A stretch of 64,000 nucleotides of DNA from an uncultured Bacilli bacterium (GCA_934148995.1 CAKPDM010000004.1:17814-81813); one strand, 5' to 3'. Numbered from the stretch's first letter, positions 597-26,911 are shown. Notes: generated by a model from the sequence alone, not told the origin. Numbers and translations: made by a program.

Positions 597-625
597 TTTA
601 CAACTCAAAATATTTTTGCTATACT
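597..625 (+). promoter_or_regulatory. Sigma-A-type promoter of the pilus/T4SS supercluster
   Basis: TTTACA (597-602), 17-nt spacer, extended -10 TGcTATACT (617-625), about 30 nt upstream of the first gene. Confidence 0.55.
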
Positions 626-656
626 AAAAATGATAATAATAAGGGGCGTGAACTAG

Positions 657-2195
657 ATGATATTAAGAAAACCATATGCGTTTTTGATTCAGTATTTTCA
701 AAGAATACATCTTGTTTTGTTAGGACTTTGCTTTTATATCTTTTATAAAACAAGTACATTACGTACTTTTGTCAGTGAATTTATTAGAACAGAAAGCTAT
801 AATGCCGATTTAGAGCCGATAAAAAATTATATAGGATTTTTACCAATTATCGTGATATTACTGTGCCTTGGTATTTTTCTTATTTTGATGATTTTATTGC
901 GACATAAAAAGAAACCATGGAAAATTTATTTAGTACCATTCTTTAGTTATATTTTCCTTTTAGGAGTAATGCTTTATATAAGGAATTTTTTTGTAACATA
1001 TAATGATATCTCCGATATAACTAAAATAATGGCCGGTCGAGATTTATTACTGATCGCTTATTTATTACAATTTGCAGTTTTTCTACTATTAATTCTTAGA
1101 ACATTAGGAATAGATTTAAATAAATTTGGTTTTAAAAATGATCAAGAATATTTAGAAATTAAAGAAGAAGATAGAGAAGAATTTGAACTTAGTTTACAAT
1201 TTGATAAAGATAGAGTTAGACGAACAGTTAATAAACTTTTTAGAAACATTGGTTATGTATATCAAGAACATAGATTTATACTTAATACGTTAATGACGGT
1301 ACTAGTTGTTATTTTAGTCGGCTATACTTATTACTACTTTGGAATACTTCATAAAATCTATAAAGAGAATCAAACCTTTAAATCAAATTTTTATGAGGTA
1401 ACTGTTTTAGATAGCTACCTAACTAATCGTAAAGACAATGGTGATTTAATTGAAAAAAATTCTAAATATTCTTATGTTATAGTTAAGTTAAAAGTAAAAA
1501 ATTTAGCTGGTGAAAGAAATATGTACACAGATAGGTTCCATCTTATTAATAGAAGTAATGAGGCCGATAGAACACCACAGTATCAGACTTATTTTTCGAC
1601 TTATGGAAAAGTATATGATAACTCTTCCTTTGATTATAATGAAACAAAAGTATTTAACTTAATCTACCGTGTTGATAAGGATTGGAAAAGTAAATACTAC
1701 ACTTTATATTATCAAGGCCTAGACAATTCTTTCCTTTTAAGAAAAGTTAAATTAAAGGTAAAAGACTATCAGACACCTGTCAAGACTTCAACTAAAAAAT
1801 TAAATCAAGAGATGAAGATAGAGGATAAGGACTTTACTTTTATAAATTATCAAGTAAGTGATAGTGCTATTTATAATTCATATAAGTGTTTTGGAACTGG
1901 TTGTAGTATCAGTCCAAGTACAGTTACATCTTATAATAAAGCTATTTTAAAAATTGATTATATAAGTGAGTATTTTGAACCAAAAACTTTTGTTGACTTT
2001 TCAACTAAGTATGCTAAAATTAAATATGAAGATAAAGATGGTAAGACTAGCAGTATAGATTGTGTTAATGCAGTTTCTAAAGATTATACCGATAATTCCT
2101 TGTATCTTAAAGTACCACTTGCTGTGAAAGAGGCTAATAAAATAGATTTAGTTTATACTGTGAATGGTAGTAAATATACCTATCATGTAAAATAG
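657..2195 (+). CDS. Polytopic membrane protein with a large C-terminal extracytoplasmic beta-rich domain; first gene of the cluster
   Basis: About 5 hydrophobic helices lie in the first 230 aa. The later segment (VTVLDSYL...VIVKLKVKNLAGE...FHLINRSNE) looks like a DUF4352-type Ig-like domain from memory. No A24 peptidase motifs were seen. Confidence 0.5.
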   Translation: MILRKPYAFLIQYFQRIHLVLLGLCFYIFYKTSTLRTFVSEFIRTESYNADLEPIKNYIGFLPIIVILLCLGIFLILMILLRHKKKPWKIYLVPFFSYIFLLGVMLYIRNFFVTYNDISDITKIMAGRDLLLIAYLLQFAVFLLLILRTLGIDLNKFGFKNDQEYLEIKEEDREEFELSLQFDKDRVRRTVNKLFRNIGYVYQEHRFILNTLMTVLVVILVGYTYYYFGILHKIYKENQTFKSNFYEVTVLDSYLTNRKDNGDLIEKNSKYSYVIVKLKVKNLAGERNMYTDRFHLINRSNEADRTPQYQTYFSTYGKVYDNSSFDYNETKVFNLIYRVDKDWKSKYYTLYYQGLDNSFLLRKVKLKVKDYQTPVKTSTKKLNQEMKIEDKDFTFINYQVSDSAIYNSYKCFGTGCSISPSTVTSYNKAILKIDYISEYFEPKTFVDFSTKYAKIKYEDKDGKTSSIDCVNAVSKDYTDNSLYLKVPLAVKEANKIDLVYTVNGSKYTYHVK

Positions 2196-2207
2196 GAAGG
2201 AACGAAT

Positions 2208-25670: not shown

Positions 25671-25681
25671 TGGGTGAAAAT

Positions 25682-26875
25682 ATGTTTAATAAATTTAATG
25701 ATTCTTTAAAAAAATTAACCGAAAAAAAAGAAAAGAAAGTAAGTGCTACGCCTACTTCTGATAAAGAAAGAGCAAGAAAAAAATTATTAAAAATAGTAGG
25801 AATGATTTCTGCTTTACTAATAGTTATATTCTTAATAATATTATTAGGTACTGTTTTGATTGGTACTAATTACTCATTTGATCAAATGGAGTTAGAACTA
25901 AAAAAGGCTGCTATAAAATACTACCAAGTTCAAGATGTCTTACTTCCTGCTGATGAAGGAGTAACTACTGAAGTTGATGATAGTACTTTATCAAGTGAAA
26001 ATTACAAGTTGATGAAACCACTTAATAAAATGAGAAAAAATGTTCAATGTACTGGTAAAGTAGTTGTTCAAAAAATAAATAATGAATATATTTATACACC
26101 TTATCTTGATTGTGGAAATAAGTATAAAACTGAAGAGTTGTATCAAGCAGTAAAGTCAAATAATAAAGCTGTTACTAGTGGTAATGGACTATATGAAATG
26201 AACGGTGAATATGTCTTTAGAGGTGATAGCGTAGATAACTATGTTAAGCTTTCTAAGGGACTATTTAGAATAGTAAAGATAACTAGTGAAAATAAAATAC
26301 TATTAATTCCAGAATTTGATGAATATTATTATAGTGTTTGGGATGATAGATATAATTCTACTATTGGTTATAGTACCGGTATTAACAACTATCGCTTGAG
26401 TAGGTTAAAAGATGATCTTTTCAATATCTATAATGATAATATAGAAAAATTTATTCTGTTGTCTAATACCGATAAAGAAAAATTAACTACTTTTTCATTA
26501 TGCATAGGTAAAAGAAGTGATGCAGAAACTAATAATACTGGTGCTGTTGAATGTGCTGATACTCTTGATAATCAAATGATTGGTTTGTTAACTGCATCTG
26601 ATTATATCAATGCTTCTTTGGATCAAAACTGTGTTGCTACTAATTCAAAAGCCTGTCAAAATTATAACTATTTGAAGATTAAAGATACTTCATGGTGGTT
26701 AATAACTTCATCAACAAAAGATACAGCTTCTGTTTATCGTGTGAATAATTATGGTTATATTGTTTCTTCTAGTGCTTCAACGCTTAGTAGAATTAGACCT
26801 ACTGTTATGTTAAATAACAATGTAATGATAAAGAGTGGTAAAGGAACTAAGAGTGATCCATTTATTTTAAAATAA
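25682..26875 (+). CDS. N-terminally anchored surface protein paralogous to 2208-4004 but lacking the Ig-like insert
   Basis: TM helix, a conserved Cys pair (VQCTGKVVV...YLDCGNKY versus ICDIKNSNVKL...HLQCGNRH), DNYVKLSKGLFRIVKITSENK and C-terminal GKGTKSDPFILK. GTG 25670 is an alternative start. Confidence 0.55.
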   Translation: MFNKFNDSLKKLTEKKEKKVSATPTSDKERARKKLLKIVGMISALLIVIFLIILLGTVLIGTNYSFDQMELELKKAAIKYYQVQDVLLPADEGVTTEVDDSTLSSENYKLMKPLNKMRKNVQCTGKVVVQKINNEYIYTPYLDCGNKYKTEELYQAVKSNNKAVTSGNGLYEMNGEYVFRGDSVDNYVKLSKGLFRIVKITSENKILLIPEFDEYYYSVWDDRYNSTIGYSTGINNYRLSRLKDDLFNIYNDNIEKFILLSNTDKEKLTTFSLCIGKRSDAETNNTGAVECADTLDNQMIGLLTASDYINASLDQNCVATNSKACQNYNYLKIKDTSWWLITSSTKDTASVYRVNNYGYIVSSSASTLSRIRPTVMLNNNVMIKSGKGTKSDPFILK

Positions 26876-26883
26876 TATTTGTT

Positions 26884-26911
26884 AAAAGTCATATTAAATT
26901 ATGGCTTTTTT
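26884..26911 (+). terminator. Rho-independent terminator ending the supercluster
   Basis: AAAAGTCAT / ATGGCTTTT stem (one G-U pair), 8-nt loop, T-run. Confidence 0.5.

Follow-up and report, generated by a model that had tools for sequence, protein, structure and literature searches.

What kind of machine is encoded by a gene cluster that joins Tad/Flp (type IVc) pilus-like genes to the genes of a Gram-positive type IV secretion system (T4SS) and has no linked relaxase? Such a cluster lies at 657-26875 on the + strand of a 64,000-nucleotide stretch of DNA from an uncultured Bacilli bacterium (GCA_934148995.1, CAKPDM010000004.1:17814-81813), the whole of which we refer to as the window. Calling of open reading frames (ORFs) resolves this 26-kb cluster into 22 co-oriented genes, designated g01-g22 (Table 1). 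An earlier examination of the window (the sequence-only reading) had recognised the closely spaced, co-oriented train of genes, although it counted about 25 of them and gave gaps of 0-130 nt, whereas the gaps actually range from -29 to +127 nt. It had suggested that the cluster may be a chromosomally fixed composite of two machines, in effect a new fusion. The locus is indeed fixed in the chromosome, as conserved synteny, housekeeping flanks and purifying selection indicate. However, the same composite already exists as a single operon in pLS20, pXO2, Enterococcus and Paraclostridium plasmids, and the premise that Tad-type modules and Gram-positive T4SSs are separate is untrue for the pLS20-class T4SS.

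We consider it probable that the locus is a T4SS of the pLS20/pXO2 class that has been domesticated as part of the permanent chromosomal set of a clade of small-genome gut Bacilli. As such, the cluster is a domesticated variant of a known machine, neither categorically new nor a fresh fusion. Its novelty lies in the setting: compared with the plasmid systems, the relaxase module is lost or absent, the genes are fixed in the chromosome across the clade, and extra CpaB and TadZ-like genes are present. The cluster corresponds to the plasmid module, keeps its synteny throughout the clade, has housekeeping flanks, retains intact motifs and is under strong purifying selection; judged from its sequence, it has probably been taken over for another contact-dependent job. 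In the literature we found no paper on this cluster in these gut (RFN20-like) Bacilli, and none that interprets the ATPase module of the pLS20 class as machinery for a Tad-like pilus.

Correspondence with plasmid conjugation operons

The layout of the cluster recurs in the annotated conjugation operons of pLS20, a Paraclostridium bifermentans plasmid, pXO2 and an Enterococcus faecium vanA plasmid; by report, pAW63 also belongs to this class. These operons start with an adhesin gene and small ORFs, followed by genes for a ~125-aa protein with an N-terminal transmembrane (TM) helix, an ATPase, and membrane proteins of ~270 and then ~245 aa. They continue with a ~120-aa DUF4320 protein, a ~48-aa hydrophobic protein, small ORFs, a TrbC/VirB2-family protein, a large protein and VirD4, and end with an extended VirB6 of the p028 family, a DUF5592 protein, a ~190-aa ORF, VirB4, a VirB8-like protein plus a hydrolase, and a MOBP relaxase. 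The window shares with the class a DUF5411 gene placed before that of a T2SSE ATPase, with two polytopic membrane proteins encoded next, a T4SS_pilin gene after small hydrophobic ORFs, and genes for VirD4, a split VirB4, an extended VirB6 and a wall hydrolase. On size, topology and position only, g16 resembles the ~100-aa two-TM VirB3-like/DUF5592 protein of the plasmids. In the published table of conserved pLS20-family genes 36-55, sizes and TM patterns match nearly every window gene (PMC8557374).

We built family hidden Markov models (HMMs) from 80 loci of the carrier lineage (described below) and ran them against the pLS20 proteins. Matches were obtained for the ATPase (1.5e-52), VirD4 (1e-63), VirB4 (2.7e-37), VirB6 of the p028 family (2.4e-6) and g09 with gene 39 (1.3e-5). 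Weak but positionally correct top matches linked g08 to gene 38 (0.005) and g11 to gene 40 (0.013), and were also found for genes 36 (0.013) and 53 (0.003). With Pfam models, pLS20 gene 36 (L081 9446-9826) matches DUF5411 (1.4e-5), as does g05; gene 45 (L081 14035-14265) matches T4SS_pilin above the Pfam cut-off (1.3e-7), as does the g13 family; and gene 38 (L081 11049-11852) has a weak T2SSF match (0.19) over the full domain. Among plasmid proteins, the g07 ATPase is most closely related to the 'tadA' products of pLS20-family Bacillus and Paraclostridium plasmids (identity 32-36%, E ~1e-39). Next come those of pXO2, pXO1, Listeria and Enterococcus, with CpaF of proteobacterial Tad systems at ~1e-20 and VirB11/TrbB at ~1e-15 or weaker. 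VirB4 has its best plasmid relatives on Bacillus thuringiensis plasmids of about 56-262 kb, which, by impression, we take to be pXO2/pAW63-like. Because the operon layout is nearly the same and these HMM and Pfam matches tie it to the plasmids, the two 'halves' of the cluster are one ancestral module of a recognised Gram-positive conjugation class.

The plasmid comparison bears directly on the idea that the cluster consists of two independent, adjoining machines, a Tad-type adhesion pilus (g05-g12) and a separate T4SS (g13-g22). Such an arrangement would suit the promoter-like sites at 12.0, 13.7 and 23.4 kb, the ability of Tad loci elsewhere to work alone, and the CpaB and TadZ-like genes, which are typical of stand-alone Tad systems. 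In four plasmid families, however, the ATPase, its membrane partners, the DUF5411 protein and the small pilin-like proteins are all encoded within one conjugation operon, with VirD4/VirB6 next. In addition, gene order is unbroken in 80 species and no terminator separates the halves; indeed, no intrinsic-terminator-like site was found in any gap between cluster genes. We regard two independent machines as improbable.

The window also departs from the plasmids in several respects. The plasmids of the pLS20/pXO2 class also encode a MOBP relaxase with auxiliary relaxosome proteins, have primase and replication genes and are under quorum-sensing control; nothing of this kind was found in the window. 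The virD4 gene precedes that of VirB6 in the plasmids, whereas it follows the hydrolase gene in the window. The plasmid adhesins are of the thioester or SpaA type, whereas the window encodes Ig-like/DUF6273 proteins, a sortase-like protein and a Cys-rich protein of 941 aa. CpaB and the TadZ-like protein of the window have no detectable pLS20 counterpart. Sequence identity to the plasmid proteins is low, at 29-34% between the ATPases and near the limit of detection for the other proteins.

A 2025 review describes Gram-positive T4SSs as universally without a VirB11-type ATPase and, Patescibacteria apart, without pili (PMC12857230), and the 2021 paper on the pLS20 family names the ATPase VirB11 and states that no pilus homologues are encoded (PMC8557374). 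Encoded both in the window and on the related plasmids are an ATPase of the FlaI/CpaF type, a T4SS_pilin protein and a pilin-like protein the size of Flp; the chromosomal locus has CpaB and a TadZ-like protein besides. Taken together, these proteins argue that a type-IV-filament sub-machine belongs to this T4SS class. A sub-machine of this kind could explain the efficient mating in liquid of pLS20-type plasmids, including pXO2 relatives and vanA plasmids.

Conservation and chromosomal setting

A search in which each GTDB species was represented by a single genome and the VirB4 body (g18) served as query recovered at least 557 relatives, of which the best 80, with 80-99% identity to g18 of the window, were taken as species loci. 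All carriers of these best 80 are uncultured gut metagenome-assembled genomes labelled Bacilli, Tenericutes, Ca. Onthousia, Ca. Faecimonas or 'Mycoplasma sp. CAG:877'. Close homologues are also present in 'Clostridium sp. CAG:451' and on contigs of 1.29-1.55 Mb, and one carrier is a circular chromosome of 1.52 Mb. Carrier genomes are about 1.3-1.5 Mb in size, and the NCBI taxonomy lists Ca. Onthousia as Bacilli incertae sedis. The window belongs to a small-genome, walled, spore-forming lineage of Bacilli and is not clostridial; a Clostridium origin, which its low GC content and spoVA flank might suggest, is rejected in view of these carriers.

Mapping by tblastn and ORF calling showed that the order of g05-g22 is identical in 80/80 species loci, as far as the contigs reach, and the co-occurrence of both halves in this order is thus confirmed. 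Median identity to the window is 84% for VirB4, 78% for the ATPase, 77% for the N-terminal VirB4 ORF, 71% for g08, 67% for g09 and 69% for VirD4, and falls to 30-38% for the surface-exposed g14, g15, g19 and g20. Against the closest comparators, at synonymous divergence (dS) of about 0.5-1, the ratio of nonsynonymous to synonymous substitution (dN/dS) is 0.02-0.4 for all genes. It amounts to 0.02 for VirB4, 0.04 for g12 and 0.09 for VirD4, while the ATPase and the membrane proteins paired with it lie at ~0.1 and the surface proteins at 0.2-0.4. The Walker A motif of the three ATPases (g07, VirB4 and VirD4) is kept in every orthologue (72/72 for VirD4), and the Walker B pattern is matched in 76/81 VirB4 and 60/72 VirD4 sequences. 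Conservation like that of ribosomal proteins, exemplified by VirB4, across hundreds of uncultured gut species points to a central contact-dependent function.

These data can be set against the view that the cluster is all that is left of a plasmid that integrated long ago, decaying and serving no function today. The missing relaxase module could be taken as a sign of decay, as could the division of VirB4 into two ORFs, a feature that the sequence-only reading did not mention although it had recognised VirB4 itself. However, VirB4 is split in 76/76 loci, and that of the functional plasmid pLS20 is split likewise, into genes 51 and 52 (PMC8557374); a frameshifted pseudogene is ruled out by this shared arrangement. 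Moreover, the catalytic motifs are intact everywhere and dN/dS is well below 1 for all genes. We consider a functionless remnant extremely unlikely: on the sequence evidence, the cluster is functional and not decaying.

Downstream of the cluster, 48 loci have the same flank of rhodanese, VTT/DedA-like and RmuC genes. Other downstream flanks encode isochorismatase and NAPRTase; SepF, DivIVA and a RelA/SpoT-type synthetase; or a P-type ATPase. In the window the downstream flank is spoVAC, spoVAD and spoVAE, and spoVA is also downstream in three further loci (L001, L014 and L016). Pairwise identities of VirB4, VirD4, g08 and g12 correlate with those of the adjacent RmuC (Spearman 0.56-0.64), with mean pairwise identity of 0.87 for VirB4 versus 0.80 for RmuC. 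Such a pattern is consistent with vertical inheritance at a fixed place in the chromosome that is occasionally rearranged, and not with an element moving between species.

Pfam scans of essentially all larger ORFs found no relaxase, integrase or recombinase, Rep, Ssb, secretin or A24 peptidase in the 64-kb window. No tRNA gene is present in the window either, and the downstream flanks of 73 loci contain no integrase and no relaxase. The absences listed in the sequence-only reading therefore stand, as does its description of the flanks as a thioredoxin lipoprotein gene and spoVA. The other 37 kb of the window is housekeeping in character, encoding RlmN, a PP2C phosphatase-family protein, a PASTA kinase, RsgA, Rpe, RadC, MreC and MreD, together with M23 and M50 peptidases, two-component systems and ABC transporters. 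A tblastn search of plasmids gave one weak match for g09 and none for g12, which rules out a recent plasmid origin.

An ordinary integrative and conjugative element (ICE) or integrated plasmid would have its relaxase, integrase and att sites beyond the region examined, and the machine would transfer that element. This explanation draws on the fact that all close characterised relatives are conjugation systems with a MOBP relaxase, on the intact VirD4, and on the GC content of the cluster (0.30-0.37), which is modestly above that of the immediate flanks (0.22-0.28). The last point also qualifies the remark in the sequence-only reading that the flanks are of similar composition by eye; a housekeeping stretch at 38-46 kb is itself at ~0.30. 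Yet in the plasmids the relaxase gene directly follows the T4SS genes, where the window has spoVA. Nor would such an element be expected to lack relaxase, integrase, Rep and a tRNA gene over 64 kb, to have housekeeping downstream flanks in 73 loci, with the same rhodanese-VTT-RmuC flank in 48 species, to encode accessory proteins (g09 and g12) with almost no plasmid relatives, and to carry a VirB4 that is 80-99% identical in at least 80 species while diverging in step with a neighbouring gene. An ICE or integrated plasmid is in our judgement unlikely.

The filament-like module, the secretion channel and their proposed function

The module g05-g12 opens with a DUF5411 protein, a family reported in CpaF/PilC-type loci of Clostridia (PMC9523054). 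The proposed CpaB-like SAF-domain protein g06 is borne out by its RcpC match above the Pfam cut-off, and it also matches TIGR03177 (4e-9), under the cut-off of that model. The g07 product was likewise correctly assigned as a TadA/CpaF-type ATPase. Its Walker A motif, Asp box and His box are intact in 56/56 orthologues, and against PDB sequences it matches FlaI (1e-21), CpaF (5e-18), an archaeal GspE and then VirB11 (5e-14). The NCBIfam VirB11 and conjugal-type TadA models score about equally, both under their cut-offs. In sequence, g07 is closer to FlaI/CpaF than to VirB11. Its Q/P/T-rich C-terminus forms a low-complexity stretch at 9860-10315, and orthologues range from 399 to 511 aa in length.

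The two following membrane proteins, g08 and g09, had been described as platform proteins of GspF topology. The topology is upheld, with a TM-helix arrangement like that of TadB/C and weak paralogy between the two proteins (E 0.002). Alignment with hhalign to a small TadB/C profile is in register with the T2SSF motif for both g08 (E 0.095) and g09 (E 0.059), and significant for neither (probability <1%). Neither protein has a Pfam match, and their family profiles gave no useful match against PDB sequences. The AlphaFold2 (AF2) model of g08 is of low confidence (predicted local distance difference test (pLDDT) 59.9), and Foldseek with this model returned only noise.

The 51-aa protein g10 has the size of a Flp pilin and a conserved leader, in which the N-terminus [KQ][AE]A[ST]GEL[NSQ][LM]T is followed by a hydrophobic helix in 63/63 orthologues. 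It has a marginal match to the archaeal Pilin_N family (0.0098), and counterparts of 47-48 aa are encoded on pLS20, pXO2 and the E. faecium plasmid. A similar leader, M-[RK]-x-A-x-G-G, begins g11. The TadE-like assignment of g11 is weak, by position and topology only; scans with the window copy and orthologues gave no HMM support for TadE or DUF4320.

The TadZ-like assignment of g12 was upheld by structural comparison. Its AF2 model (pLDDT 82) matches TadZ of Eubacterium rectale, 3FKQ (PMC10499894), in a full-length Foldseek search (E 3.9e-4, probability 0.99), along with HypB, ParA and MinD. The 3FKQ structure is the single pilus-associated full-length match, and a TM-score of ~0.3 makes it a match of architecture, not a close superposition. 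In hhalign, g12 aligns with CpaE/TadZ of four Tad loci over the nucleotide-binding region (E 0.011); the g12 and g20 family profiles gave nothing useful against PDB sequences. The model thus supports a predicted TadZ-like two-domain fold for g12.

Resemblance to Tad/Flp (type IVc) systems therefore lies in CpaB/RcpC, an ATPase of the CpaF/FlaI clade and a TadZ-like two-domain protein, in two paralogous polytopic proteins encoded after the ATPase, and in a ~50-aa pilin-like protein accompanied by a larger one with a similar leader. We read g05-g12 as belonging to the type IV filament superfamily, where it is divergent and lies closest to the Tad/archaeal branch, and not as a canonical Tad locus.

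In the T4SS part, the Pfam matches agree with the earlier assignments of a VirB6/TrbL-like protein (g15), VirB4 (g18), a SpoIID and C39-like hydrolase (g19; C39 score 0.016) and VirD4 (g21). Two T4SS-pilin-domain proteins had also been proposed. For g13 this is supported at the family level, by 12 orthologues, with the window copy itself scoring 0.017; pXO2 and the E. faecium plasmid have a gene annotated TrbC/VirB2 in the corresponding place. For g14, the most variable gene of the cluster, there is a weak full-length T4SS_pilin match (1.7). The proposed PrgI/VirB3-like identity of g16 agrees with its position and topology, although scans of the window copy and orthologues gave no HMM match to PrgI, DUF5592 or other families. 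The start of g18 overlaps the end of g17 as ATGA, and g17 orthologues carry the precomputed annotation PF26593 (TraC-like). One g19 orthologue has a precomputed Peptidase_C39_2 annotation, and one g20 orthologue matches FG-GAP. The g20 protein may be the counterpart of the gene at the VirB8 position or of pLS20 gene 55; a VirB8 identity is unsupported, the signals being the 0.003 HMM match to pLS20 gene 53 and the DxDxDG/FG-GAP-like motif. Two further low-complexity stretches are the G/P/R-rich tail of g15 (16700-17554) and the N/Q-rich N-terminus of g19 (20231-20850).

If these assignments hold, the two-piece VirB4, the VirB3-like protein and the extended VirB6 would form the core of a channel through the membrane and wall, with the hydrolase opening the wall, and VirD4 would select a cytoplasmic substrate and feed it to the channel. 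The ATPase, the two platform-like proteins, CpaB and the TadZ-like positioning protein could assemble or cycle a short filament, or a piston, whose subunits would be g10, g11 and/or g13. Together with the VirB2-like pilin and the sortase-like, Ig-like/DUF6273 and Cys-rich surface proteins, the filament might make or stabilise contact with a target cell. The whole would be a single envelope-spanning organelle that delivers proteins or non-element DNA to neighbouring cells, or exchanges material with them. We favour host-serving, contact-dependent export over self-transfer: a host-serving role is likelier than that of a spreading mobile element because there is no linked relaxase and inheritance appears vertical.

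An apparatus for DNA uptake would use the same parts differently, with a retractile Tad-like filament capturing DNA and the T4SS core importing it, in the manner of Helicobacter pylori ComB or the Flp pili of Micrococcus luteus. Small genomes may rely on scavenged DNA, RmuC is the conserved neighbour in 48 loci, and two papers report that the uptake of DNA by Liberibacter and Micrococcus requires Tad or Flp pili (PMC8513845, PMC4322843). ComB is moreover a chromosomal T4SS derivative without a relaxase and with a host function (PMC12857230). However, it belongs to a diderm and is without VirD4 and a VirB11-type ATPase (PMC12857230), whereas the window keeps both. The strong conservation of VirD4, a hallmark of export, argues against pure uptake of the ComB type, and the cluster contains no ComEA- or ComEC-like gene. 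We therefore think an uptake apparatus unlikely.

Cooperation of a type-IV-filament machine with a T4SS in one transfer process is also seen in the IncI thin pilus (R64, TP114) and PAPI-1, where the pilus is reported to promote mating in liquid (PMC12857230; PMC9045228). Those systems differ in being diderm, in having type IVb pili encoded in separate clusters and in having relaxases, and are related in sequence to the window only through the ATPase superfamily. Conceptually, the closest precedent is the chromosomal T4SS of Patescibacteria, a small-genome lineage, which usually has no relaxase and has VirB2-like pilins (PMC12102498). It resembles the window in deriving from monoderm conjugation systems, in being chromosomal and lineage-wide, and in having a VirB2-like (T4SS_pilin) protein and no linked relaxase, a likeness drawn by analogy. 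It differs in belonging to another phylum, whereas the window comes from walled, spore-forming Bacillota, and no T2SSE ATPase or Tad-like module is described for it, with 0 mentions of Tad in the source (PMC12102498). Domestication in the Bacilli would be a second, independent domestication of a monoderm conjugation system, after that in Patescibacteria. The same source reports the Saccharimonadia T4SS to be essential for epibiotic growth (PMC12102498).

A bolder proposal, which we put forward only tentatively, is that a lineage of order rank, made up of small-genome, spore-forming gut Bacilli, depends on this domesticated machine, in which the Tad-like motor and the VirB4/VirD4 channel would form one organelle exchanging proteins, DNA or nutrients with partner cells or the host. 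The machine would in that case be the equivalent in Bacillota of the essential T4SS of epibiotic Saccharibacteria. The Tad-like module would then also be the missed 'pilus' of the pLS20/pXO2 class.

Several points weigh against a domesticated, filament-bearing machine. For g08 and g09, the statistical case for homology to TadB/TadC is weak. The g10 leader (KAATG-ELNLT) is without the G/xxxxEY signature of Flp pilins, having no E at +5 and no Y at +6, and Pfam scans gave no Flp_Fap match; the former description of g10 as Flp-like holds for its size. The 64-kb window contains no prepilin peptidase (TadV/A24) in Pfam scans. Further differences from Tad/Flp systems are the absence of a secretin from this monoderm locus, platform proteins whose similarity to T2SSF is not significant, and the embedding of the module in a T4SS operon. 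The absence of a relaxase applies only to the 64-kb window and, in other genomes, to the ~10 kb surrounding the cluster. The main uncertainty is a relaxase encoded farther away in the chromosome, which might let the system mobilise chromosomal DNA; one of an unrecognised type is another possibility. The clade-wide distribution rests on record labels and sequence similarity. Finally, RmuC adjoins the cluster, and its correlation with the cluster genes leaves some room for transfer of a larger block in place of vertical descent.

Upstream genes, minor features and coordinates

Table 1. Coordinates (positions in the window), strand and supporting evidence for the cluster genes, the divergent upstream gene and the promoter-like sites.
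Feature	Position	Strand	Basis
Thioredoxin-family lipoprotein	125..544	-	Pfam Thioredoxin 5.5e-11, weak TraF match; divergent from cluster
Promoter-like site ahead of g01	597..625	+	TTTACA-17-TATACT, extended TG; consensus match only
g01 polytopic membrane protein, 512 aa	657..2195	+	Weak DUF4352 match; kept in L083, L085
g02 membrane-anchored surface protein, Ig-like domain + DUF6273	2208..4004	+	Bact_surface_Ig-like 2.9e-21, DUF6273 5.7e-5
g03 sortase-like, SLLTC motif	4019..4798	+	Pfam Sortase 28.2 bits (cut-off 26.6)
g04 secreted Cys-rich protein, 941 aa, 34 cysteines	4776..7601	+	No family match
g05 DUF5411 protein, N-terminal TM helix	7604..8095	+	DUF5411 7.3e-47; counterpart of pLS20 gene 36
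g06 CpaB/RcpC-like SAF-domain protein	8117..8938	+	Pfam RcpC 1e-7, 32.3 bits (cut-off 28.8)
g07 T2SSE-family hexameric motor ATPase, TadA/CpaF/FlaI type, low-complexity C-terminal tail	8960..10315	+	T2SSE 2e-27
g08 polytopic membrane protein	10330..11223	+	TM topology; counterpart of pLS20 gene 38; candidate TadB-like platform
g09 polytopic membrane protein	11226..12005	+	Counterpart of pLS20 gene 39; candidate TadC-like platform
Promoter-like site ahead of g10 small pilin-like gene	12022..12050	+	GTTACA-17-TATAAT, TG; 76-nt gap
g10 Flp-sized pilin-like protein, 51 aa	12082..12237	+	Conserved N-terminus and hydrophobic helix
g11 165-aa protein, N-terminal TM helix	12252..12749	+	Counterpart of pLS20 gene 40 (DUF4320); candidate minor pilin
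g12 cytoplasmic TadZ/CpaE-like protein	12765..13742	+	Receiver-like N-domain, MinD/ParA-like domain, degenerate Walker A (HAGSTT)
Promoter-like site ahead of g13 VirB2-like gene	13746..13774	+	TTGACA-17-TATCAT, 11/12 positions
g13 VirB2-like T4SS pilin, 118 aa, two TM helices	13799..14155	+	T4SS_pilin in 12 orthologues, best E 1.4e-7
g14 secreted variable protein, C-terminal two-TM module like g13	14182..15465	+	Shared C-terminal motif; counterpart of pLS20 gene 46
g15 extended VirB6/TrbL-like channel protein, disordered G/P/R-rich tail	15482..17554	+	TrbL_4 3.4e-7
g16 104-aa protein, two TM helices	17576..17890	+	VirB3/PrgI/DUF5592 by position, size, topology only
g17 N-terminal (TraC-like) VirB4 domain as own ORF, 185 aa	17862..18419	+	NCBIfam VirB4_plasma residues 102-276, 9.5e-15
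g18 VirB4 ATPase body	18416..20206	+	AAA_10, P-loop_TraG, DUF87
g19 wall hydrolase, SpoIID + C39-like peptidase, VirB1 equivalent	20231..22606	+	SpoIID 1e-6; Peptidase_C39 0.016
g20 membrane-anchored extracytoplasmic protein, 261 aa, DxDxDG motif	22619..23404	+	Weak HMM match to pLS20 gene 53, 0.003
Promoter-like site ahead of virD4 (g21)	23433..23461	+	TTGTGA-17-TATAAT, TG; 127-nt gap
g21 VirD4 coupling protein, acidic C-terminal tail	23532..25670	+	T4SS-DNA_transf 3.2e-57, TraG-D_C, TrwB_AAD_bind
g22 membrane-anchored DUF6273 surface protein, last cluster gene	25670..26875	+	DUF6273 0.003; in 60 loci

Four conserved upstream genes, g01-g04, which the sequence-only reading had not mentioned, belong to the cluster. 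The surface protein g02, a paralogue of g22, is kept in the loci of distant species (L093 and L094) and is a candidate adhesin. The sortase-like g03 is closest to class B (TIGR03064 SrtB 1.7e-18, under the cut-off of that model) and is kept in the same two loci. It has no obvious substrate, as no cluster protein ends in an LPXTG/NPQTN-type signal followed by a TM helix and basic tail. The large g04, with orthologues of 933-971 aa at the same position in L083, L085, L093 and L094, is a candidate adhesin or tip protein. The genes for the Ig-like, sortase-like and ~940-aa proteins (g02-g04) are kept even where g12 is only about 45-60% identical to that of the window.

The divergently oriented thioredoxin gene occupies the same upstream position in loci L083, L085 and L086, and a conserved thioredoxin-like gene has been reported in lactococcal conjugation clusters (PMC10221548). 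The lipoprotein may serve the Cys-rich g04 as a dedicated disulfide helper and may count as the 23rd member of the system. Its gene is followed, immediately after the 3' end, by a perfect 16-17-bp hairpin (84-120) with T-runs on both strands that resembles a bidirectional terminator.

Promoters had been proposed at 12.0, 13.7 and 23.4 kb. These positions coincide with the three widest gaps of the cluster (76, 56 and 127 nt, respectively), and each of them, like the region ahead of g01, holds a good, near-consensus sigma-70-like site. The sites are only suggestive because, in total, shuffled sequence is expected to give at least as many promoter-like matches.

Some loci carry additional genes within the cluster. 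In one subclade an insert of ~3.2 kb lies between g12 and g13 (L031:2843-5888, L067:1882-4883, L026:2962-6007). It encodes a ~495-aa polytopic membrane protein and an FAD/NAD-type oxidoreductase (GAGPAGLTAAY), content that rules out a relaxase in these inserts; the insert may be glycosylation cargo. In L051 and L075, a g22/g02-like gene lies between g13 and g14.

Elsewhere in the window, the spoVA operon and a 322-aa ORF with no match are followed at 30232-32113 by a gene for a 215-aa factor of the sigma-70 family, then an 80-aa ORF and a gene for a HipA_C-like kinase. A 75-aa ORF at 37500-37727 matches the Fic/DOC profile only towards its C-terminal end (positions 51-90 of 93) and is probably a truncated Fic gene. 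A short stretch at 48-52 kb, in which strand and GC skew are inverted, holds a gene (48756-50261, - strand) for a 501-aa protein with an N-terminal HTH_3 domain, a long C-terminal coiled-coil-like region and weak matches to scaffold proteins.

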